From positions 32,001-96,000 of the forward strand of contig CAYLXA010000008.1 in assembly GCA_964387845.1 (NCBI GenBank): DNA of 64,000 nucleotides. Reading direction: 5' to 3'. Below the pieces are notes generated by a model, which worked only from the letters and a program-made list of their open reading frames with translations, did no database searches and had not been told where the DNA came from. Every line of letters begins with the position of its first letter. Position 1 is the first letter of the stretch. A program made the translations under genes and the position numbers. The stretch comes from an uncultured bacterium. Its GTDB lineage: Bacteria > Omnitrophota > Omnitrophia > Omnitrophales > Abzuiibacteriaceae. Shown in pieces: positions 2,704-30,233 of this stretch.

Positions 2704-2931
2704 ATGTTCGACCAAATCAAAGTGATGATGAAGATGATGCAGGACCCGGACTTTCGGGCATTTATTTCACATCCGAAAGTTCAGGAAGTTTTTAAGGATC
2801 CGGCGTTTCAGGATGTGATTAAATCAAAGGATCCTGCGAAGGTGATGGCACATCCAAAGATGCAGATTTTGATGTCAAACCCCGAAGTTGCAACTCTTAT
2901 TCGCAAGGTAGATTTCACAAAATTTACGTGA
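2704..2931 (+). CDS. small hypothetical protein with repeated DPxF/HPK[VM]Q units (STI1/DP-like)
   Basis: GGAGG lies 7 nt upstream of ATG 2704. There is an internal repeat (DPDFRAF..HPKVQEVF / DPAFQDV..HPKMQILM). It has no homolog recognisable by eye. Confidence 0.4.
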   Translation: MFDQIKVMMKMMQDPDFRAFISHPKVQEVFKDPAFQDVIKSKDPAKVMAHPKMQILMSNPEVATLIRKVDFTKFT

Positions 2932-3003
2932 TTTTTGGCTTAGAAATTACAGGTAAAAAACAGTAACTAATTTAAATAGTTATAAAAAACTTATAAAAGT
3001 ACT

Positions 3004-3032
3004 TGACAAGTACCTGTCATAGTGTTAAATTA
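3004..3032 (+). promoter_or_regulatory. putative sigma70 promoter TTGACA-16-TTAAAT
   Basis: cttgacaagtacctgtcatagtgttaaat. It sits at the head of a ~620 nt largely non-coding, hairpin-rich region. Confidence 0.4.
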
Positions 3033-3359
3033 ACCGTAGATATATGAAATTAATCCATATATCCGGTATTTCGGCAGATAGATAAATTAAACAGTGACTT
3101 GCAGTGCCGAAATCAGTACAATGCAGGTCGCAATTCAAATGGCACTTGATGAGCCGCTCGAATTGCCGGCAGAATTAAGCGACTCTCTGGGCTGGATAGA
3201 GAGGGATTTAACATGAAAACCAATAGCTTAAAGTTCTGCTACTCCCGCTTAGACCCGACTCAAAAATCTTCTCTTTCCGCCGTCTTTTCCGATTTGTTCT
3301 CAGGCATCCAAAAATTCAACACCGTTTATAAACGCCAGGGCGAAGGTGTGATTTCAATC

Positions 3360-3560
3360 GAAGCGCTCAGGACACCGCGCCACCCGCGCGGTGCCAGACA
3401 AACGAGCGGCCACCCGCCGCTTAACCAACTGGCACCGAGCCGTATCGGTCGAATCCGCGCAGCTAGTCTGCAGCGTCCTCTCTGGCCTTCTGGAGCCTGT
3501 CTGCCGGCGGGTGACGGAAGCCGGGGAGTTCGTCCCGGCGTTTACCTTTTTTGATTTAAC
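3360..3560 (+). ncRNA. GC-rich (~65%) highly structured segment inside an AT-rich intergenic region; candidate structured RNA or leader of unknown class
   Basis: It contains several strong hairpins: caccgcgc-cacc-cgcgcggtg, cggtgccag..ctggcaccg, and ccggggagttcgtcccgg followed by tttacctttttt. The overlapping ORFs 3213..3554 and 3391..3657 translate to R/P/G-rich low-complexity peptide. Confidence 0.3.
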
Positions 3561-3653
3561 ATCCGGCAGCGAACAACGAACACTTGCGCAAATGCGCGAG
3601 TGCCATCTCGCGGGGCTTAAGGATAGCCCCGTCTCGATAGGAGGAGAATCAAA
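3557..3653 (+). promoter_or_regulatory. conserved 5' leader, copy A (upstream of 3654 gene)
   Basis: About 75% identical to copy B. It has the box CGAACACT..ATG.GCGAGTGCCATCTC, a hairpin (ggggct-taaggat-agcccc) and ATAGGAGGAG. It encodes a 21-aa uORF (3592..3657, MRECHLAGLKDSPVSIGGESK) whose TGA overlaps the main ATG. Confidence 0.55.
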
Positions 3654-4172
3654 ATGAGAATGATAAACCTCATATTATTGGTACTAGGGATATTGACGAT
3701 TTCCGGACCAGCATTTGCTCAAAAGCCATTAGCTGATTATGGCAACGTACCTCAAAATGCGGTGAGTGGAGTTGCGGACGCAGAACCGCCTTTTATTTTG
3801 GAGCTCGACGCGGGAGGCAATCAGTTTCGGGGAGGCAGGCAAATCGTGGTTAACCTTGATTTCACGAATACGTCTTCCTCAGCTAGGGTAGACAACATTG
3901 AGTTTGCTTTCGGTATCACGCCTGCCAGCGAACCTGCGAATCCTGTTTTTCAGGATTACGGCATTGTTGATAGTGCCTTTTCACGCGGCGGAAAATATAC
4001 GATCTATACCGCAAAAGTCGTACTGACAACCGGCGATTACGATGTTTGGAGTATAGTCACTTCGACCGATCAATTTGGCAATTATTCGAACGGCTGGACA
4101 AAAAAACGAATTGTGGTAACTGGCGGTCCGATACCTGTTCAATCGACGGATGTTGCGGTAGGTAAGTCATAA
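3654..4172 (+). CDS. secreted hypothetical protein (172 aa)
   Basis: Signal peptide (MRMINLILLVLGILTISGPAFA), a good RBS, and a terminator hairpin cgggactgtcccgg downstream at ~4193..4207. Confidence 0.6.
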   Translation: MRMINLILLVLGILTISGPAFAQKPLADYGNVPQNAVSGVADAEPPFILELDAGGNQFRGGRQIVVNLDFTNTSSSARVDNIEFAFGITPASEPANPVFQDYGIVDSAFSRGGKYTIYTAKVVLTTGDYDVWSIVTSTDQFGNYSNGWTKKRIVVTGGPIPVQSTDVAVGKS

Positions 4173-17566: not shown

Positions 17567-17639
17567 AATCCGGTTTGCATTGAATCCGATTGTGAAATTT
17601 TATAAAATGACACCGGAATTATTGATTGTTAATAGTTGT

Positions 17640-17718
17640 GTCATCCTGAACGAAGTGAAGGATCTAAGTTCGTAGACCCTTCGCTCTGCTCAGGGTGACA
17701 GGAGTTGCTCAGGATGAC
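17640..17718. mobile_element. solo miniature copy (MITE-like) of the GIY-YIG element inverted repeats
   Basis: gtcatcctgaacgaagtgaaggatc + 11 nt + acccttcgctctgctcagggtgac + gctcaggatgac. The IR sequence and the partial terminal duplication match those flanking the GIY-YIG gene at 22509..22888. Confidence 0.6.
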
Positions 17719-18452: not shown

Positions 18453-20087
18453 ATGAGCCTTTTCTGGATTGCGCTTTTTGTTTGCGCGGTTTTCTTGGCG
18501 GCTTATTGGACCTACGGACGGTTCTTAAGCCGCCATTTTTCTTTAAATCCAAGAGCCAAAACGCCTGCCTGCGAGATTAATGACGGTGTGGATTATGTTC
18601 CCGCCGAGAAAAACTTCCTTCTCAGCCAGCATTTTTCCGCGATTTCTGCCGCAGGGCCGATCGCTGGGCCGATCATTGCCGCCGTTTGGTTTGGCTGGCT
18701 GCCGGTGCTTTTATGGATTGTGTTAGGCGCGATTTTCTTCGGTGCTGTGCATGATTTTTCAAGTCTCGTCAATTCCGTCCGCCACCGCGCATTGTCAATC
18801 GTCGAAATTGTGCACGAATATTTAGGCCGGCGCGGTTATTTACTTTTTTCTGCTTTTGTTTGGCTGTCTTTGATTTACGTTATTACCGCTTTTGCTGATT
18901 TAACGAGCAATTCATTTGTCAATCCCGAACTGGGCGGCGGTGTTGCGGCTTCCTCAACTTTATATTTATTGATCGGCTTGGCGATGGGAATCGCGCTTTA
19001 TAAATTTCGGATGCCGCTAGGGCTCGCAACCGCCATTTTTCTTCCGCTCGTCATTTTCGCGATCTGGTTTGGCCAATATATTCCGATCGTGCTTCCGCAA
19101 CATACCTGGAACCTAATTTTATTGGTTTATTGTTTTATCGCTTCCGTGATTCCGGTATGGCTTTTGCTCCAGCCGCGCGGATTTTTGGGCGGATTTTTTC
19201 TCTATGTGACGCTTGCGGCCGGCCTCATCGGTCTTTTCTTGGGCGGGGAAACGATCCAATATCCGGCCTTCATCGGATTTAAAAGCGAAAAGGGTTTACC
19301 GCTTTTTCCGATTTTATTCGTGACGGTTGCCTGCGGCGCTTGTTCCGGATTTCACGGGATTGTGAGTTCAGGGACAACATCCAAGCAAATTGCGAAGGAG
19401 CCGGACTGCCGGATGATCGGTTATGGCGGCATGCTTTTGGAAGGTGTTGTGGCTTTGATTTCGCTTGCGACTGTGATGATTCTTGCGAAAGGTGATGCGC
19501 TCGTATCCGGTTCACCCGATCAAATTTACGCCGAAGGCCTCAGCCGTTTTGTAAGCAATTTCGGAATTCCGCGCGAATTTGCGCGTTCCTTCGCGCTTTT
19601 GGCTTTCACGACTTTCATTTATGACACACTCGATGTCGCAACGCGGCTTGCGCGTTATATTTTTCAAGAGGTAACCGGCTGGAAAAGCAATTGGGGAAAG
19701 TACGCCGCAACGTTTATCAGTCTTCTGATCCCGTTTTTTTGTGTCAGCATGAAATCGGTGGATGCTGCTGGCCATGCCGTTTCGGCGTGGCGGATTTTCT
19801 GGACGGTTTTCGGCACTTCCAATCAGCTTTTGGCGGCACTCACGCTCATGATGCTGACCGTTTGGCTTGTGAAAATTAATAAACCGTGGTGGATGAGCGG
19901 AATTCCGATGATTTTTATGTTTACGATGACCGTTTGGTCTTTATTTCTGATGGCTCAGCCGATGCTTTCCGGCTGGTTTTCTGGGAATTTTAGGCTGGAT
20001 TTGGTGGGTTCCGTATCGATCGTTCTTTTTGTCCTTACCGCGTTATTGATTGGGGAAGTGTTGAAATTGAAGAAAATATCGCATTAG
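18453..20087 (+). CDS. cstA: carbon starvation protein A (CstA) family transporter
   Basis: N-terminal ...QHFSAISAAGPIAGPIIAAVWFGWLP signature; multi-TM; 544 aa. Confidence 0.85.
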   Translation: MSLFWIALFVCAVFLAAYWTYGRFLSRHFSLNPRAKTPACEINDGVDYVPAEKNFLLSQHFSAISAAGPIAGPIIAAVWFGWLPVLLWIVLGAIFFGAVHDFSSLVNSVRHRALSIVEIVHEYLGRRGYLLFSAFVWLSLIYVITAFADLTSNSFVNPELGGGVAASSTLYLLIGLAMGIALYKFRMPLGLATAIFLPLVIFAIWFGQYIPIVLPQHTWNLILLVYCFIASVIPVWLLLQPRGFLGGFFLYVTLAAGLIGLFLGGETIQYPAFIGFKSEKGLPLFPILFVTVACGACSGFHGIVSSGTTSKQIAKEPDCRMIGYGGMLLEGVVALISLATVMILAKGDALVSGSPDQIYAEGLSRFVSNFGIPREFARSFALLAFTTFIYDTLDVATRLARYIFQEVTGWKSNWGKYAATFISLLIPFFCVSMKSVDAAGHAVSAWRIFWTVFGTSNQLLAALTLMMLTVWLVKINKPWWMSGIPMIFMFTMTVWSLFLMAQPMLSGWFSGNFRLDLVGSVSIVLFVLTALLIGEVLKLKKISH

Positions 20088-20892: not shown

Positions 20893-20998
20893 AAGTCTAA
20901 ATATATCATAAAGTTATAACAGAAAACCAGAATGGCTATTTAAGGGCATTTTCTATATAATAATGGCTCTCTTTAACCTTAACCAATCTGAGCCCTAA

Positions 20999-21559
20999 AT
21001 GCTGACAAGTCAGTCGATTAAGTCGTATTTAAAAGCGCTTTCAAGCGATAGCCCGACGCCCGGAGGCGGGAGTTCGTCTGCACTTGTGGCAGCCATGGGA
21101 ACAGGGCTTCTATTAATGGTGGCCAAAATTGCGCGCCGGAAATTATCAAAAATAGAGCAAAAGGCGCTTGATAAGGTCATTAAATTACTCACCAAATGCT
21201 TGCGCGATATGGAAGCCGTCATTGACTTGGACGTCAAAGTGTATGATGCGGTGATGGCTGCTTATAAAAAGAAGGATGAAGCAAAAATTGAATCTGCGCT
21301 CGGCAATTCATTCCGGCTTCAGGCGGATCTGGCGTTCTTAATCGCGATGTCCAAAGAAACACTGCCGGCACTGTTTAAAGTTGTGAAGGGCTCGATCGGG
21401 AATGATTTGATCGTCGCGCGCGCATTTTTGGACGGCGCATTTCAAGGCGCGGTTGCGACCGCGAGAATTAATGTGAAATACATGCAATCGGCAAAGAAAG
21501 ATCATTTTAACCGTGCGCTTCAGCAGCTTGAGAAGCGGTATTACGGGATAAAAGCATAA
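20999..21559 (+). CDS. cyclodeaminase/cyclohydrolase family protein (formiminotransferase-cyclodeaminase C-domain-like; candidate methenyl-THF cyclohydrolase FchA)
   Basis: SPTPGGGSSSALVAAMGTGLLLMVAKIA motif; it sits immediately upstream of folD. Confidence 0.7.
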   Translation: MLTSQSIKSYLKALSSDSPTPGGGSSSALVAAMGTGLLLMVAKIARRKLSKIEQKALDKVIKLLTKCLRDMEAVIDLDVKVYDAVMAAYKKKDEAKIESALGNSFRLQADLAFLIAMSKETLPALFKVVKGSIGNDLIVARAFLDGAFQGAVATARINVKYMQSAKKDHFNRALQQLEKRYYGIKA

Positions 21560-21645: not shown

Positions 21646-22518
21646 ATGACTGCCAAACTTTTAGAAGGAAAAATCATAGCCGAAAAGCTGCAGAAGAAAA
21701 TTGCAGCAGAGGTGCGCGATCTGACGTCCAAAACAAAGCAAACGCCCAAAATGGTGGCAATCCGGATTAATGAAGACCAAGCCTCAGAGCTTTATTTGAA
21801 ATCACAGCGGAAAGCCGCGGAGCTTGCCGGCATGAAGCATGAAACGATTACGATTTTGGGTGCGACCGAAAGACAATTAATTCAGGCCATCGAAAAAGCC
21901 AATAAAGACGTATCCATTCATGGCATCATGATTCAAATGCCGCTTCCTCAGGATTTTCATCTCGAAAATATTTTGGATTCCATCGATCACAAGAAAGACA
22001 TCGAAGGCGTCACGAGTTTTAATTTAGGGCAATTGGTTCTCAAGAAAGACAAATTGGTTCCGTGCACGGCGCTTTCCTGCATCACTTTGATTGAAGAGAC
22101 AGGCGAGAAGCTGCGCGGCAAAGAAGCTGTGATCGTGGGCTCCAGCAAAGTCGTTGGGCGCCCGGTTTCGCTTTTACTTTTAGACCGGATGGCAACCGCG
22201 ACGGTTTGTCATATTGCGACTTCAGAAGCCGGGAAGCTTGAATCGCATGTGAAGCGTGCGGATATTTTGGTGGTGGCGGTCGGAAAAGAAAATGTAATTC
22301 CCGGGAAATGGGTCAAAGAAGGCGCGATTGTGATTGATGTCGGGATTAACCGTGTGAACGGAAAAACCGTGGGCGATGTGGAATTTGAAGAAGCAAAATC
22401 CAGAGCCAAATTCATTACGCCGGTCCCGGGCGGCGTGGGCCCAATGACGGTGACGATTTTAATGCACAATTTGGTAACGGCGTACAGGTGGCAGACAGAG
22501 AATGCGTCGTCATTCTGA
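21646..22518 (+). CDS. folD: bifunctional methylenetetrahydrofolate dehydrogenase / methenyl-THF cyclohydrolase FolD
   Basis: Start taken at ATG 21646 (MTAKLLEGKII...). Conserved FolD motifs are present (GxSxxVGxP, PGGVGPMTV). The last ~7 codons and the stop lie inside the element's left IR. Confidence 0.9.
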   Translation: MTAKLLEGKIIAEKLQKKIAAEVRDLTSKTKQTPKMVAIRINEDQASELYLKSQRKAAELAGMKHETITILGATERQLIQAIEKANKDVSIHGIMIQMPLPQDFHLENILDSIDHKKDIEGVTSFNLGQLVLKKDKLVPCTALSCITLIEETGEKLRGKEAVIVGSSKVVGRPVSLLLLDRMATATVCHIATSEAGKLESHVKRADILVVAVGKENVIPGKWVKEGAIVIDVGINRVNGKTVGDVEFEEAKSRAKFITPVPGGVGPMTVTILMHNLVTAYRWQTENASSF

Positions 22519-22888
22519 GCGTAGCGAAGAATCTCTGTTTCGATGAAGAAGGGTTACGTTTATTTGCTTGCGAACAAAGTTAACACTGTAATTTATATCG
22601 GAGTTACAAGCAATCTTGCAAAAAGAATTTGGGAACATAAAAAGAAGCTGGTAGAAGGATTTACAAAGAAATATAACGTAGACAAACTAGTTTATTATGA
22701 AATTTTCGAGTTAGTTGTTGATGCAATAAAAAGAGAAAAGCAAATTAAAGGTTGGGTCAGAAAAAAGAAAGTGGACTTAGTCGAATCACTTAACCCTAAT
22801 TGGAACGATCTATACAAGAACTTAAACGAATAAGATGTACGAGATCCTTCGCTTCGCTCAGGATGACGGGCGAAGGGTTCAGGATGAC
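22509..22888 (+). mobile_element. GIY-YIG mini-element: 25-bp imperfect terminal inverted repeats flanking a GIY-YIG endonuclease gene
   Basis: Left IR is gtcattctgagcgtagcgaagaatc (22509..22533). Right IR is gatccttcgcttcgctcaggatgac (22843..22867), followed by a partial duplicate cgaagggttcaggatgac. The element is inserted exactly between folD and panB. Confidence 0.7.
22543..22833 (+). CDS. GIY-YIG nuclease superfamily protein (96 aa)
   Basis: KGYVYLLANKVNTVIYIGVTSNLAKRIWEHK = GIY-(x10)-YIG with the conserved R and E residues. Confidence 0.85.
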   Translation: MKKGYVYLLANKVNTVIYIGVTSNLAKRIWEHKKKLVEGFTKKYNVDKLVYYEIFELVVDAIKREKQIKGWVRKKKVDLVESLNPNWNDLYKNLNE

Positions 22889-23684
22889 GATGAAAACCTC
22901 AATCCAACACATCCTTAATAAGAAAAAAGCCAAACAGAAAATCACGGCGCTTAGCACCTACGATTTTGCATTTGCGAAGCTCGTCGATCAATCAGGTGCG
23001 GATATTGTTTTGGTCGGCGATTCCGTCGGCATGGTCCAGCTCGGTTACGAATCCACGTTGCTTGTGACTTTGGATGAGATGATTCATCACACGAAGGCGG
23101 TTTCGCGCGCCGTAAAGCGTGCGCTTGTTGTGGCGGATATGCCGTATAAAACTTACGAAACAGCCGTTTCGGCGATTAAATCTGCACGGCGGTTTATTGA
23201 AGATGCCAAAGCTGATGCGGTGAAGTTAGAAGGCGGCGAGAAAGTTGTGAAGCAGGCCAAGGCACTCACACGGCTGGGTATTACAGTCATGGGCCATCTC
23301 GGAATGTTGCCGCAGTCGATTGAGAAGACAGGCGGCTATAAGGTTCAGGGTAAGGACAAAAAGCAAGCCGATCAAATTTTAAAAGATGCAAAAGCACTCG
23401 AAGAAGCCGGAGCATTTTCTATCGTTTTGGAATGCATTCCGTATGAGCTTGCGAAGAAAATCACGGAATCCATAAAAATTCCGACCATCGGAATCGGCGC
23501 CGGGCCTTATTGTGACGGACAAATTTTAGTGCTGCATGATTTACTTGGGTTTAAATCGAGTGTCAGCCCGCGCTTTGTGAGGCGCTACATGGATTTTGAT
23601 GCGCTGGCCAGTAAAGCTCTGGAGCAATTCCGCCATGATGTCGAAACCGCCAAATTTCCGTCTCTAAAAGAGAGTTTTGAGTAA
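22884..23684 (+). CDS. panB: 3-methyl-2-oxobutanoate hydroxymethyltransferase PanB
   Basis: ...ITALSTYDFAFAKL...VGDSVGMV... signature. Both candidate start codons (ATG 22884, ATG 22890) are supplied by the caggatgac motif of the element. Confidence 0.9.
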   Translation: MTMKTSIQHILNKKKAKQKITALSTYDFAFAKLVDQSGADIVLVGDSVGMVQLGYESTLLVTLDEMIHHTKAVSRAVKRALVVADMPYKTYETAVSAIKSARRFIEDAKADAVKLEGGEKVVKQAKALTRLGITVMGHLGMLPQSIEKTGGYKVQGKDKKQADQILKDAKALEEAGAFSIVLECIPYELAKKITESIKIPTIGIGAGPYCDGQILVLHDLLGFKSSVSPRFVRRYMDFDALASKALEQFRHDVETAKFPSLKESFE

Positions 23685-28246: not shown

Positions 28247-29217
28247 TGGCATATCCCAAAACGCGGCTTAGAAGGCTCCGGCGCACGGAAAATCTGAGGC
28301 GCCTTGTCAAGGAAACACATCTTTCTCCGGATCAGTTGATCATGCCGTATTTTGTTTCGGAACTGATCCGAGGCAAAGAGCCGATTCAATCAATGCCGGG
28401 ACAATTCCGGTATTCAATATCCGCGCTTTTATCAGAGCTCGATGGTTTAAGCCGCACAGGGGTTCGAAATATCATCCTGTTCGGAATTCCGAAGAACAAA
28501 GATGAAAAAGCGCGCAGTGCTTATTCATCAAAGGGAATTATTCAACAAACCACGCGCCAAATCAAAAAGCGTTTTCCGGGGCTGAATGTGATCACGGATG
28601 TTTGCCTGTGCGAATACATGAGCCACGGCCATTGCGGCATCATTCAAAAAAACCATGTTCAAAATGATGCAACGCTTACGCTTCTTGCCAAAACTGCGCT
28701 TTCGCATGCCGAGGCCGGCGCCGACATTGTGGCGCCGAGCGACATGATGGACGGCCGGATTGCCGCGATCCGCAAAAATTTAGACCGAAGCGGTTTTGAG
28801 GAATTGCCGATAATGAGTTATGCCGCGAAATTTGCCTCAGCTTATTATGGGCCGTTCCGTGAGGCCGCGCATTCTGCTCCGTCATTTGGCGACCGGAAAA
28901 GTTATCAGATGAATCCGGCCAACCGGAAAGAGGCCTTGCGCGAAATCGAAACGGATATTGAAGAAGGCGCCGATATTGTCATGATCAAGCCGGCGCTGCC
29001 GTATTTGGACGTGATTCGGGATGCGAACGCGAAGTTTCAAATTCCGTTTGCGGCCTATCAAGTGAGCGGTGAGTATTCGATGATCAAAGCGGGTGCCAAA
29101 GCCGGGTTTATGGATGAGCGGCAGCTGGTTTTGGAAACATTGCTTTCAATTAAACGGGCGGGAGCCAATATCATTCTGACGTATTTTGCAAAAGACGCTG
29201 CGAAATGGCTGAAATGA
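28246..29217 (+). CDS. hemB: porphobilinogen synthase (delta-aminolevulinate dehydratase) HemB
   Basis: RLRR..R..RLV.ET.L...LI.P.FV N-terminus and the active-site Lys region (ADIVMIKPALPYLDV). Confidence 0.9.
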   Translation: MAYPKTRLRRLRRTENLRRLVKETHLSPDQLIMPYFVSELIRGKEPIQSMPGQFRYSISALLSELDGLSRTGVRNIILFGIPKNKDEKARSAYSSKGIIQQTTRQIKKRFPGLNVITDVCLCEYMSHGHCGIIQKNHVQNDATLTLLAKTALSHAEAGADIVAPSDMMDGRIAAIRKNLDRSGFEELPIMSYAAKFASAYYGPFREAAHSAPSFGDRKSYQMNPANRKEALREIETDIEEGADIVMIKPALPYLDVIRDANAKFQIPFAAYQVSGEYSMIKAGAKAGFMDERQLVLETLLSIKRAGANIILTYFAKDAAKWLK

Positions 29218-30233
29218 ATCAATCAGTTTCAAAACACTCCTCACCCCAACCCTCTCCCATGGGGAGAGGGCAGGGTGAGGGGTCGAGAAGATTTCATTTT
29301 TCAATTCTTGTTTTTTTCGGTACGTTCATCCTTTGCTTCGCGCTCTGGATGACTTATCTACAGCAAGTCGGCTCCTCCGAAAATCATTTCGGAAGTTACC
29401 TGATTCTGATCATGGGCCTTTTATTTTCGGCAGCCTGCGGACTTTTTGTTTGGTCGCTTGAGTCCCGGGAACAGTTTCTCAAGAATGAAGTTGAGAAGCG
29501 GACGGTTCAGCTTCAAAGCATTAATGAGGAACTCGCCGAAAAGAATAAAGAAATCGAAAGCTTTGCTTACGCCATCTCGCACGATTTAAAAGCACCGCTG
29601 GTTTCCATTCAAGGTTTTACGTCATTATTAAAATCCGAACTCGGAAAAACTGCCGAAGGGCCTGTCGGTGCTCAACTAGACCGTATTTCAGCAAACGTAA
29701 AACAGATGAGTGCGCTTATTCAGGATATCTTGGAATTTTCAAGAGTCGGCCGCATGGAAGAAGAGCAGGAAAGTGTCGATATGAATGAGCTTTTCAAGGA
29801 AATCACGGCTGCGCTGAGGCCTCAAATTGAAAGCAAAAAAATCATACTTGAAATTAAACCGCCTTTTTCAACGCTGTGGGGATCCCGGAAGCGCCTTCAA
29901 CAGGTATTTATGAATTTGATCGGAAATTCCGTTAAATATATAGGTACTACGCCCAGCCCCAAGGTTAAAGTATATGGCCGGGAATCCGGAAACGGGCTTT
30001 TTGAGATTTGCGTTGAAGACAACGGCATCGGGATCCCGAAAGAAGCTCAGGAAAAGGTATTTAAAATTTTTCAGCGTTTTCATCCTAAATTGGGCGTCGA
30101 AGGGACCGGAATCGGTTTGAGCACCGTCAAGAAAATCGTAGAGACGAGCGGCGGGCGGATTTCGTTTACGTCGGAACCCGGCAAAGGAACGTCTTTTTTT
30201 ATCGCCTGGCCGAAAACGGATTTAAAAAAATGA
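29205..30233 (+). CDS. sensor histidine kinase (2 TM, HisKA + HATPase_c)
   Basis: H-box FAYAISHDLKAPL, N/G1/G2 boxes (DNGIGIP, GTGIGLS). The N-terminal cytoplasmic tail contains an in-frame palindromic insert. Confidence 0.8.
   Translation: MAEMNQSVSKHSSPQPSPMGRGQGEGSRRFHFSILVFFGTFILCFALWMTYLQQVGSSENHFGSYLILIMGLLFSAACGLFVWSLESREQFLKNEVEKRTVQLQSINEELAEKNKEIESFAYAISHDLKAPLVSIQGFTSLLKSELGKTAEGPVGAQLDRISANVKQMSALIQDILEFSRVGRMEEEQESVDMNELFKEITAALRPQIESKKIILEIKPPFSTLWGSRKRLQQVFMNLIGNSVKYIGTTPSPKVKVYGRESGNGLFEICVEDNGIGIPKEAQEKVFKIFQRFHPKLGVEGTGIGLSTVKKIVETSGGRISFTSEPGKGTSFFIAWPKTDLKK
29238..29283. repeat. REP/RPE-like palindrome inside the histidine-kinase N-terminus, in frame
   Basis: cctcaccccaaccctctcccatggggagagggcagggtgagg, a perfect nested palindrome encoding SPQPSPMGRGQGEG. 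Confidence 0.65.

Follow-up and report, generated by a model that had tools for sequence, protein, structure and literature searches.

The closest described counterparts of the locus reported here are the Ssn nucleases. SsnA of N. meningitidis is a 94-aa single-domain GIY-YIG protein (CDD cd10448) that binds a 28-nt hairpin, CGTCATTCCCGCGMAVGCGGGAATCYRG, only as single-stranded DNA and in one orientation, does not bind RNA, and makes its cut 5′ of the hairpin's CGTC tag, a few nucleotides away; three further homologs act likewise on their own repeats (Chenal et al., Nat Commun 2025, PMC11893778). Mutagenesis assigned Y6, Y17 and E64 to the catalytic Tyr of GIY, the Tyr of YIG and the metal-binding Glu, and the bases critical for Ssn are the GTC that precedes the palindrome and the C that follows it (PMC11893778). 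Hairpin motifs of this kind, named SRM, were found near 71% of the homologs and on both sides in 42% (PMC11893778). SsnA lowers transformation by DNA flanked by the Neisseria repeat NTS, and the 'NTS-ssnA-NTS' layout was likened to an insertion sequence (IS), with mobility and the role outside Neisseria left open (PMC11893778). In this study we analyzed a 64-kb stretch of DNA (hereafter the window) from an uncultured bacterium. It carries a gene for a 96-aa GIY-YIG protein, here called ssn, nested between two SRM-like hairpin repeats whose tags point outward. We consider it probable that this is an Ssn-type unit that was inserted at the folD/panB junction and has spread in a homing-like manner to, or between, identical sites.

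A second relevant group is the CGTC-tagged repetitive extragenic palindromes (CGTC-REPs), which have been defined by an unpaired CGTC or TGTC tag, a stem starting with A-T and a mostly head-to-head dimeric arrangement (Di Nocera, De Gregorio, Rocco 2013, PMC3733652). They include Neisseria dRS3 and Rickettsia RPE-4 and RPE-6, are often found inside open reading frames (ORFs) or no more than 20 bp from an ORF 3′ end, have been proposed to act as RNA, and 'apparently lack a dedicated transposase' (PMC3733652). Literature searches with our repeat strings, or with GIY-YIG combined with REP, miniature inverted-repeat transposable element or hairpin, gave no match, and the combination of CGTC or dRS3 with GIY-YIG led to Ssn; no follow-up paper on Ssn turned up in a search for such work.

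The whole unit, which has the look of a selfish element, covers ~385 bp (window ~22504-22889), with folD, ssn and panB all on the plus strand and in that order. Alleles of the folD/panB junction that carry the unit are called filled and those that do not are called empty. R1 is a covariance model built from the repeat units described below. The parts are as follows.

21646-22518, plus strand: folD, 290 aa, Pfam THF_DHG_CYH and THF_DHG_CYH_C.
22495-22507, plus strand: left flank ACAGAGAATGCGT, co-transferred, ~10-13 nt, common to both filled alleles and unlike both empty alleles.
22508-22535, plus strand: left hairpin repeat SRM-L, R1 43.1 bits, E=1.5e-8.
22543-22833, plus strand: ssn, 96-aa single-domain GIY-YIG nuclease, Pfam PF01541 E=8e-18 over residues 3-76.
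22841-22868, minus strand: right hairpin repeat SRM-R, reading CGTCATCCTGAGCGAAGCGAAGGATCTC on the minus strand with the tag outward, R1 43.4 bits, E=1.2e-8.
22869-22889, minus strand: extra 21-nt module, reading CGTCATCCTGAACCCTTCGCC on the minus strand.
22890-23684, plus strand: panB, 264 aa, Pfam Pantoate_transf E=1e-108, with profile position 1 at residue 2.

Judged by these parts, the locus is an Ssn-family unit and not a new kind of element; the family was first described in 2025. The window protein has 96 aa and a single GIY-YIG domain, and its Y7, Y18 and E65 stand at positions offset by one from Y6, Y17 and E64 of SsnA. The gene is flanked on both sides by inverted CGTC-tagged hairpins in the 20-50 nt range, the GTC and the 3′ C are kept, and an additional gene-less copy of the repeat lies elsewhere in the window. 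The differences are the host, an uncultured bacterium whose nearest named relatives are Omnitrophota, the low copy number, and the fact that the unit is known from sequence alone. In addition, the published work only hypothesizes IS-like mobility, whereas the window locus offers both filled and empty alleles. Past the GIY-YIG domain the protein continues for 20 residues, and it has no further Pfam domain. A sequence search of the PDB with it found no solved relative and returned only a chance primase match (E=0.004), and assignment to the NCBIfam group I intron endonuclease TIGR01453 was rejected (24.9 bits against a cut-off of 56, covering profile positions 1-36 of 215 only).

An earlier note on this DNA had described a GIY-YIG gene bracketed by inverted repeats without recognizing the Ssn family in it, and this description holds: the 96-aa ORF matches PF01541, and the 28-nt arms at 22508-22535 and 22841-22868 are 89% complementary. 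With up to 3 mismatches allowed, the 25-nt arm motif has 4 matches in the 64-kb window, compared with 0 in 100 dinucleotide-preserving shuffles. SRM-L consists of the CGTC tag (22508-22511), the hairpin ATTCT-GA-GCGTAGC-GA-AGAAT (22512-22532), a conserved C and a TC tail. The partial direct duplicate reported beside the right repeat is also real. The sequence TCAGGATGACG occurs at 22858-22868 and 22879-22889, and the 21-nt module that ends with the second copy is composed of a tag, a half-stem and a segment complementary to the right arm. The note was right in placing the folD stop (TGA, 22516-22518) inside the left repeat, but not in placing the last ~7 codons there, as only S-S-F and the stop lie inside. 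The GC content of the unit is 35.5%, against 45-52% in the flanks.

Promoter-like and terminator-like sites belonging to the unit itself were absent from the scan, and there is no T-run after the single arms. Since the unit has neither a promoter nor a terminator of its own, ssn is probably transcribed with the operon and read in the sense orientation as a part of it. The panB ATG lies 57 nt past the ssn stop, and the region 22835-22895 folds at -21.8 kcal/mol (z=-2.3). A scan of the whole 64-kb window with the Rfam gathering thresholds matched no family.

The insertion was defined by comparison with relatives, which in order of FolD identity are L086 (94%), L083, L084, L085 and L087 (87%), L088 (83%) and L090 (74%). 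No GIY-YIG gene, no sequence resembling the inverted repeats and no TENASSF tail was found in L086, L083/L087, L088 or L090. In L086 and in L083/L084/L085/L087, folD runs into panB through an ATGA overlap and no sequence separates the two; L088 has a 29-nt spacer and L090 one of 18 nt, neither with a repeat. A further genome, L002, carries the same insertion, with site and junctions identical to those of the window but without the 21-nt module. The junction is resolved within about 3 nt; in the alignments GAGAA(A)TG precedes the left break and ATGAA follows the right one. At the left junction there is an unexplained extra CGT and one A is lost, and a 3-bp ATG target duplication at 22502-22504 is possible. 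The related genomes that lack the gene also lack the repeats, which shows that the unit was inserted where folD and panB overlap by ATGA. This agrees with the placement in the earlier note, here backed by four empty relatives without gene and repeats. The same comparison disposes of two other options: the FolD tail and the repeats are not native sequence, as the gene-less relatives have neither, and the repeats as a native, preferred target sequence had to be rejected, as they are absent from all empty sites.

The insertion has changed both neighboring gene ends. The nearest FolD relatives from empty sites have 286 aa and end in ...RWQVEK, and the window FolD has 290 aa and ends in TENASSF; the tail VEK has thus been replaced as a whole, with a net gain of four residues and the stop in the left arm, as the earlier note had proposed in speaking of a rewritten C-terminus. 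The translational coupling through ATGA is lost, the native panB ATG is kept, and the PanB N-terminus reads MKTSIQHILN in the window and MKKVTTSDILQ in the empty alleles. There are three in-frame ATGs for panB, at 22863 and 22884 inside the motif caGGATGac and at 22890 directly 3′ of the repeat. The first two exist in frame as had been claimed, but as the panB start the third is likelier: it is used by the gene calls and corresponds, in the alignment, to the ATG with which panB natively starts in empty-site relatives. The claim that the element supplies the panB start is correct to the extent that an AGGA from the repeat end (22881-22884), 5 nt upstream of the ATG at 22890, and the first ~28 nt came along with it; the ATG itself is native and lies outside the repeat. 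As a side observation, the native panB start of L086 (1036-1052, ATGAAGAAAGTTACAAC) matches the ssn start of the window (22543-22559, ATGAAGAAGGGTTACGT) at 14/17 positions with one gap, a resemblance that is probably due to chance but could be microhomology at the insertion point.

The comparison of filled and empty alleles carries the inference of spread. Grouping the window with L086 and L002 with L083 is favored by 65 informative sites in folD, against 5 and 9, and by 60 in panB, against 17 and 17, so that each host lineage contains one filled and one empty allele. The sites uniting the filled alleles are 849, 850, 851 and 858 of the 858-nt folD alignment and 2, 10, 14, 16, 17, 21 and 28 in panB; they are concentrated at the end of folD (last 10 nt) and the beginning of panB (first 28 nt). 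Only the two filled alleles have this ~28-nt beginning of panB (MKTSIQHILN) in common, and the start region of panB therefore came with the element. Between the window and L002, third codon positions differ by 19.6% in ssn, compared with 43.8% in folD, 53.3% in panB, 46.5% in the upstream FTCD_C gene and 45.3% in the downstream cytochrome c assembly gene. After correction for composition, the third-position divergence is 0.23 for ssn versus 0.66-0.94 for the four flanking genes (Fisher p<=2e-5), and the non-coding arms are identical at 35/39 and 22/24 positions. By these measures the element is 3-4 times less diverged than the flanking genes and is much younger than the split of the host lineages that share the site, which argues for homing-like spread or gene conversion. 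The simplest reading is that the unit, together with ~10 nt of left and ~28 nt of right flank, either entered the same site twice or was passed between the lineages by gene conversion. The nearest other nucleases, P0003 and P0004 (70% identity), were considered for a folD/panB context and rejected, as they lie upstream of an aldolase/short-chain dehydrogenase (SDR) gene; occupancy of this site is thus limited to the closely related pair. Filled and empty alleles in two lineages, co-transferred flanks and the low divergence of the element are what is new here, and together they point to mobility on comparative grounds.

Separately from the unit, host lineage B (L002 439-2181 and L083 318-1979) has an extra gene of 553-580 aa between the glycosyltransferase and FTCD_C genes, with weak matches to FG-GAP/beta-propeller and Flg_new_2, which the window (about 20900-21000) does not have.

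Each 25-nt arm forms a hairpin with an unpaired (C/T)GTC tag, a 5-bp stem starting with A-T, a tandem GA/GA internal loop and a 2-bp inner stem capped by a triloop (GAA or GTA, as in GCGAAGC or ACGAAGT), followed by the 3′ C of a CTC tail. The tags are CGTC at 22508 and at 22868 (minus strand) and TGTC at 17639. The fold was examined by covariation in 22 distinct units, some taken from the window and the others from homolog loci of other phyla. Standard pairs fill 94.8% of the cells. Of the 7 pairs, 4 show compensatory changes, among them pair 6-22 (C-G, U-A and G-C) and pair 11-17 (G-C to A-U), and the observed covariation was reached by 0/500 shuffles; sliding the partner columns lowered pairing to 24-47%. 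G1, T2, C3 and C25 are conserved in at least 90% of the 22 units, pair 4-24 is AU in 21/22 and pair 5-23 is UA in 21/22. The R1 model finds exactly four units in the window at E<1e-6. A further R1 match at 29327-29353 (E=0.0015) was rejected, as it is coding sequence conserved in L087. A perfect-stem hairpin finder was dropped, since a 5-bp stem was too permissive (shuffles being about equal) and a 7-bp stem too strict, and was replaced by inverted pairs of tag-plus-6-nt words.

Homologs of the ssn protein number 4348 in the database, almost all of 93-103 aa, and a 21-sequence alignment shows no variation at Y5, Y7, Y18, G20, R28, E31, R64 and E65. Scanning one genome from each GTDB species gave at least 600 pattern matches, at least 585 of which encode a confirmed relative; 80 of these loci, with 51-66% identity to the window protein, were kept. 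They come from Omnitrophota, Patescibacteria, Cyanobacteria, Bacteroidota, Chlorobi, Campylobacterota, Chloroflexi, Planctomycetes and others, as well as from Alpha-, Gamma- and Deltaproteobacteria, and the at least 585 loci are spread over nearly all bacterial phyla. The flanks of 64 homolog genes show almost everywhere GTCAY with a self-complementary arm upstream and the reverse complement, ending in RTGAC, downstream, with a stem that varies by lineage (TTGCGAG, TCCTGAG, TTCCGGC, TCCCGC, TGCTGAA). In 46/63 loci the same tag-plus-6-nt word (up to 2 mismatches) is found on the plus strand upstream and the minus strand downstream, compared with 0-1/63 for shuffled flanks. The flanks of six homologs that are 57-63% identical to the window protein (L017, L019, L032, L041, L042 and L079) are 1-3 mismatches away from the 28-nt Neisseria NTS. 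The GCGAAGC mini-hairpin subtype recurs in L007, L022, L034, L035, L047, L057, L058 and L062, and occurs in Omnitrophota-like, Campylobacterota, Chlorobi, Bacteroidota, Alphaproteobacteria and other genomes.

Two observations on individual homologs may be added. In-frame nonsense codons occur in 3 of the 64 homolog genes (L021, L034 with TGG to TAG, and L075), with the frame recognizable beyond them, and these ORFs look like decaying copies. In L058 (Hyphomicrobiales, 2790-3698), ssn is embedded among at least eight tandem 75-nt doublets, with three of them upstream and five downstream, and its ORF extends into the first downstream arm.

The repeat also occurs without the gene: the 64-kb window contains a second, gene-less pair at 17640-17699, which the earlier note had missed.

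17639-17718, strand undefined: gene-less SRM doublet in the spacer between the TerC-family and Bax1-I-family genes, found by motif search, folding and the R1 model.

It is made up of a plus-strand unit (17640-17664), a 10-nt loop and a minus-strand unit (17675-17699), which score 41.5 and 37.6 bits with R1, followed by a partial copy of the tag, GCTCAGGATGAC, at 17707-17718. Its predicted fold is a long hairpin on either strand (-36.8 kcal/mol with z=-4.1, and -38.1 kcal/mol with z=-6.0). The TerC/Bax1-I spacer of L087 has no doublet; L087 has doublets in its YceI/permease spacer and at its cstA/glycosyltransferase junction, at both of which the window is without a repeat. The latter, a full doublet with an ATTGC stem and the same loop GAGCGAAGCGAAG, lies at L087 6296-6365 between the convergent genes and contains both stop codons, and in the window the two genes overlap by 53 nt (20035-20087) with no repeat. 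Many homolog loci have additional gene-less doublets. The 17640-17718 doublet would be a non-autonomous copy of the repeat flanking ssn.

The 'partial direct duplicate' is likewise a recurrent module, present in the window at 22869-22889 and 17700-17718 and in L087, where GGTCGAAGGATTCAGGATGAC, almost identical to GGGCGAAGGGTTCAGGATGAC of the window, follows the right arm of the doublet at 763-870. Copies of tag and half-stem outside the right arm were also seen in L004, L013, L017, L027 and L042, and two or more minus-strand tags lie downstream in 27/63 loci versus 6-9/63 in shuffles. A different REP-like repeat, unrelated to the CGTC-tagged units, was noticed at window 29240-29285, where a 39-nt in-frame insertion relative to L087 holds the palindrome CTCACCCCAACCCTCTCCCATGGGGAGAGGGCAGGGTGAGGGG near the 5′ end of a histidine-kinase ORF (29205-30233; 342 aa in the window versus 330 aa in L087).

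Three other explanations have to be weighed against homing-like spread. The unit could have been inserted once, in a common ancestor, and been precisely lost in L086 and L083, its lower divergence reflecting better conservation and not a recent move. The identical site and junctions in the window and L002 would fit this, and in so small a gene third-position identity could be inflated by purifying selection or by AT-biased codon use (A+T makes up 68% of third positions). However, the outgroups L088 and L090 are empty, two independent deletions would each have to recreate the GAGAAATGAAG overlap, the VEK tail and the MKK... start of PanB, and the 3-4-fold lower third-position divergence of ssn persists after correction for composition; the arms, which are non-coding, are also nearly identical. 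We regard this explanation as quite improbable. That the hairpins act at the RNA level like classical REPs, in transcript stabilization, attenuation or panB translation, with the GIY-YIG gene as an unrelated passenger, is very improbable. It is in line with the position of most CGTC-REPs within 20 bp of ORF 3′ ends and their proposed RNA function (PMC3733652), with the strong folding of the 17640 doublet as RNA at both z-scores, and with the AGGA that the right end sets 5 nt before the panB ATG. Yet gene and repeat are associated in 46/63 loci across phyla and in 71% in the published survey, SsnA binds no RNA (PMC11893778), and the single arms have no T-run, gave nothing in the terminator scan and match no Rfam family.

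A domesticated host system is also unlikely, if less so than the foregoing. In this case the nuclease and its dispersed hairpins would restrict or modulate recombination of incoming single-stranded DNA, as in Neisseria, where the lowering of transformation by NTS-flanked DNA by SsnA is the only Ssn role that has been shown experimentally (PMC11893778). The intact ORF with conserved catalytic residues would suit such a function, as would the sense orientation of ssn within the operon without a promoter or terminator of its own. On the other hand, there are two repeat loci in 64 kb and hundreds per Neisseria genome, the unit disrupts a translationally coupled gene pair, it is missing from close relatives and therefore dispensable, and nonsense-bearing homologs occur (L021, L034, L075). 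Moreover, domestication is compatible with mobility.

For the favored homing-like spread of an Ssn-type unit, the following mechanism seems likeliest. By analogy with the homologs studied by Chenal et al. in 2025, nicks are predicted a few nucleotides 5′ of each tag; because the arms are inverted and the tags point outward, these nicks would lie on opposite strands and coincide exactly with the unit's two outer borders. Nicks in single strands exposed during replication, repair or DNA uptake would then trigger recombinational copying, by which the unit would be copied into a homologous empty site with short flanks dragged along. The gene-less doublets would be non-autonomous copies.

Several points weigh against this interpretation. 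GIY-YIG nucleases form no covalent intermediate and perform no strand transfer, and no complete transposition chemistry can therefore be proposed. Classical homing, in which the empty allele is cut, is not directly implied either, since the recognized hairpin is absent from the empty sites. The divergence of ssn is no larger than that of folD within a lineage (0.37-0.39), but ssn is short, with 97 third positions, and not significantly younger by this comparison (p=0.05-0.06). All compared genomes are metagenome assemblies, and with two repeat loci in 64 kb the copy number is low. The assignment to Ssn was made through size, residue positions, repeat layout and the NTS-flanked homologs, SsnA and cd10448 being compared by their published description only. 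The window hairpin, with its 5-bp stem, GA/GA loop and GCGAAGC mini-hairpin, differs from the described 8-9 bp stem with a 4-5 nt loop, and none of the four window units matches the published SRM pattern, HGTCWYN(0-2)YYVSBRHN(0-5)WNVSBRGN(0-2)RNCYNB. Within the window this pattern has a single match, which is due to chance and lies in the coding sequence of folD (22207-22240), and it matches only 15 of the 80 homolog loci; the pattern was built from 29 genomes as a search aid and not as a definition (PMC11893778).

The window repeat is a distinct hairpin subtype and would be a further family within the CGTC-REP superfamily. It shares with the known CGTC-REPs the tag, the A-T stem start, the head-to-head dimers folding into larger hairpins, and the position at or over ORF 3′ ends, at times adding amino acids. 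The families CGTC-1 to -4 have a stem of 8-9 bp, a loop of 4-5 nt and a CCA tail, whereas the loop region of the window repeat has 11 nt with an inner 2-bp stem, and the window repeats bracket a dedicated nuclease gene. In REPIN-RAYT systems, too, a single-copy nuclease gene lies between its own palindromic repeats, doublets are dispersed between genes, and the hairpin is recognized in single-stranded DNA (predicted for the window by analogy with SsnA). However, RAYTs are HUH/Y1 transposases with a GTAG tag, and the window unit has a GIY-YIG enzyme, a CGTC tag and no covalent intermediate; RAYT systems are for the most part passed on vertically, whereas the window unit appears to have spread horizontally to the same site.

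GIY-YIG homing endonucleases such as T4 Seg and I-TevI resemble the unit in their catalytic domain, in insertion between or at the ends of conserved genes, in the co-conversion of short flanks and in filling the same site in diverged genomes. They differ in having a separate DNA-binding domain (NUMOD, zinc finger or helix-turn-helix) and in cutting the double-stranded empty allele; the window protein is a bare catalytic domain, and the Ssn family cuts only single-stranded DNA beside a hairpin carried by the element. IS200/IS605 elements are likewise small, have subterminal hairpins recognized as single-stranded DNA and lack the long terminal inverted repeats of the DDE type, but they use an HUH enzyme with both cuts on the same strand and have asymmetric ends, in contrast to the symmetric inverted hairpins and GIY-YIG enzyme of the window. 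A GIY-YIG domain of the stand-alone type was reported by Dunin-Horkawicz et al. in 2006 (PMC1564403) as recently inserted in the Methylococcus capsulatus HsdR gene MCA0838, of which a homolog with 80% identity has no such insertion; this may be the same kind of unit within a coding sequence.

When Ssn was described in 2025, the emphasis lay on its use as a tool in biotechnology and on its modulation of transformation in Neisseria, and its role elsewhere 'remains to be elucidated'. The locus described here is a natural experiment that makes the mobility of Ssn directly testable, and it links the CGTC-tagged REPs, long orphans, to an enzyme. Surveys that use the SRM pattern under-count such systems, because the pattern misses the widespread GCGAAGC subtype. 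For annotation, the locus explains a class of spurious or altered gene ends. A broader idea, which we advance tentatively and with slightly more doubt than belief, is that SRM-ssn-SRM units move autonomously and make up a so far undemonstrated class of mobile element. In these, the bare single-strand nuclease would nick at its own outward-facing hairpin ends and drive site-specific, homing-like copying of the unit into one and the same locus of diverged genomes, along with short replacement ends for the genes that it splits; the gene-less doublets, namely the orphan CGTC-REPs, dRS3, RPE-4 and RPE-6, would be non-autonomous derivatives. If true, this autonomous mobility would provide the mobilizing enzyme missing from the account of Di Nocera et al., and would put the IS-like hypothesis left open by Chenal et al. 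to the test.

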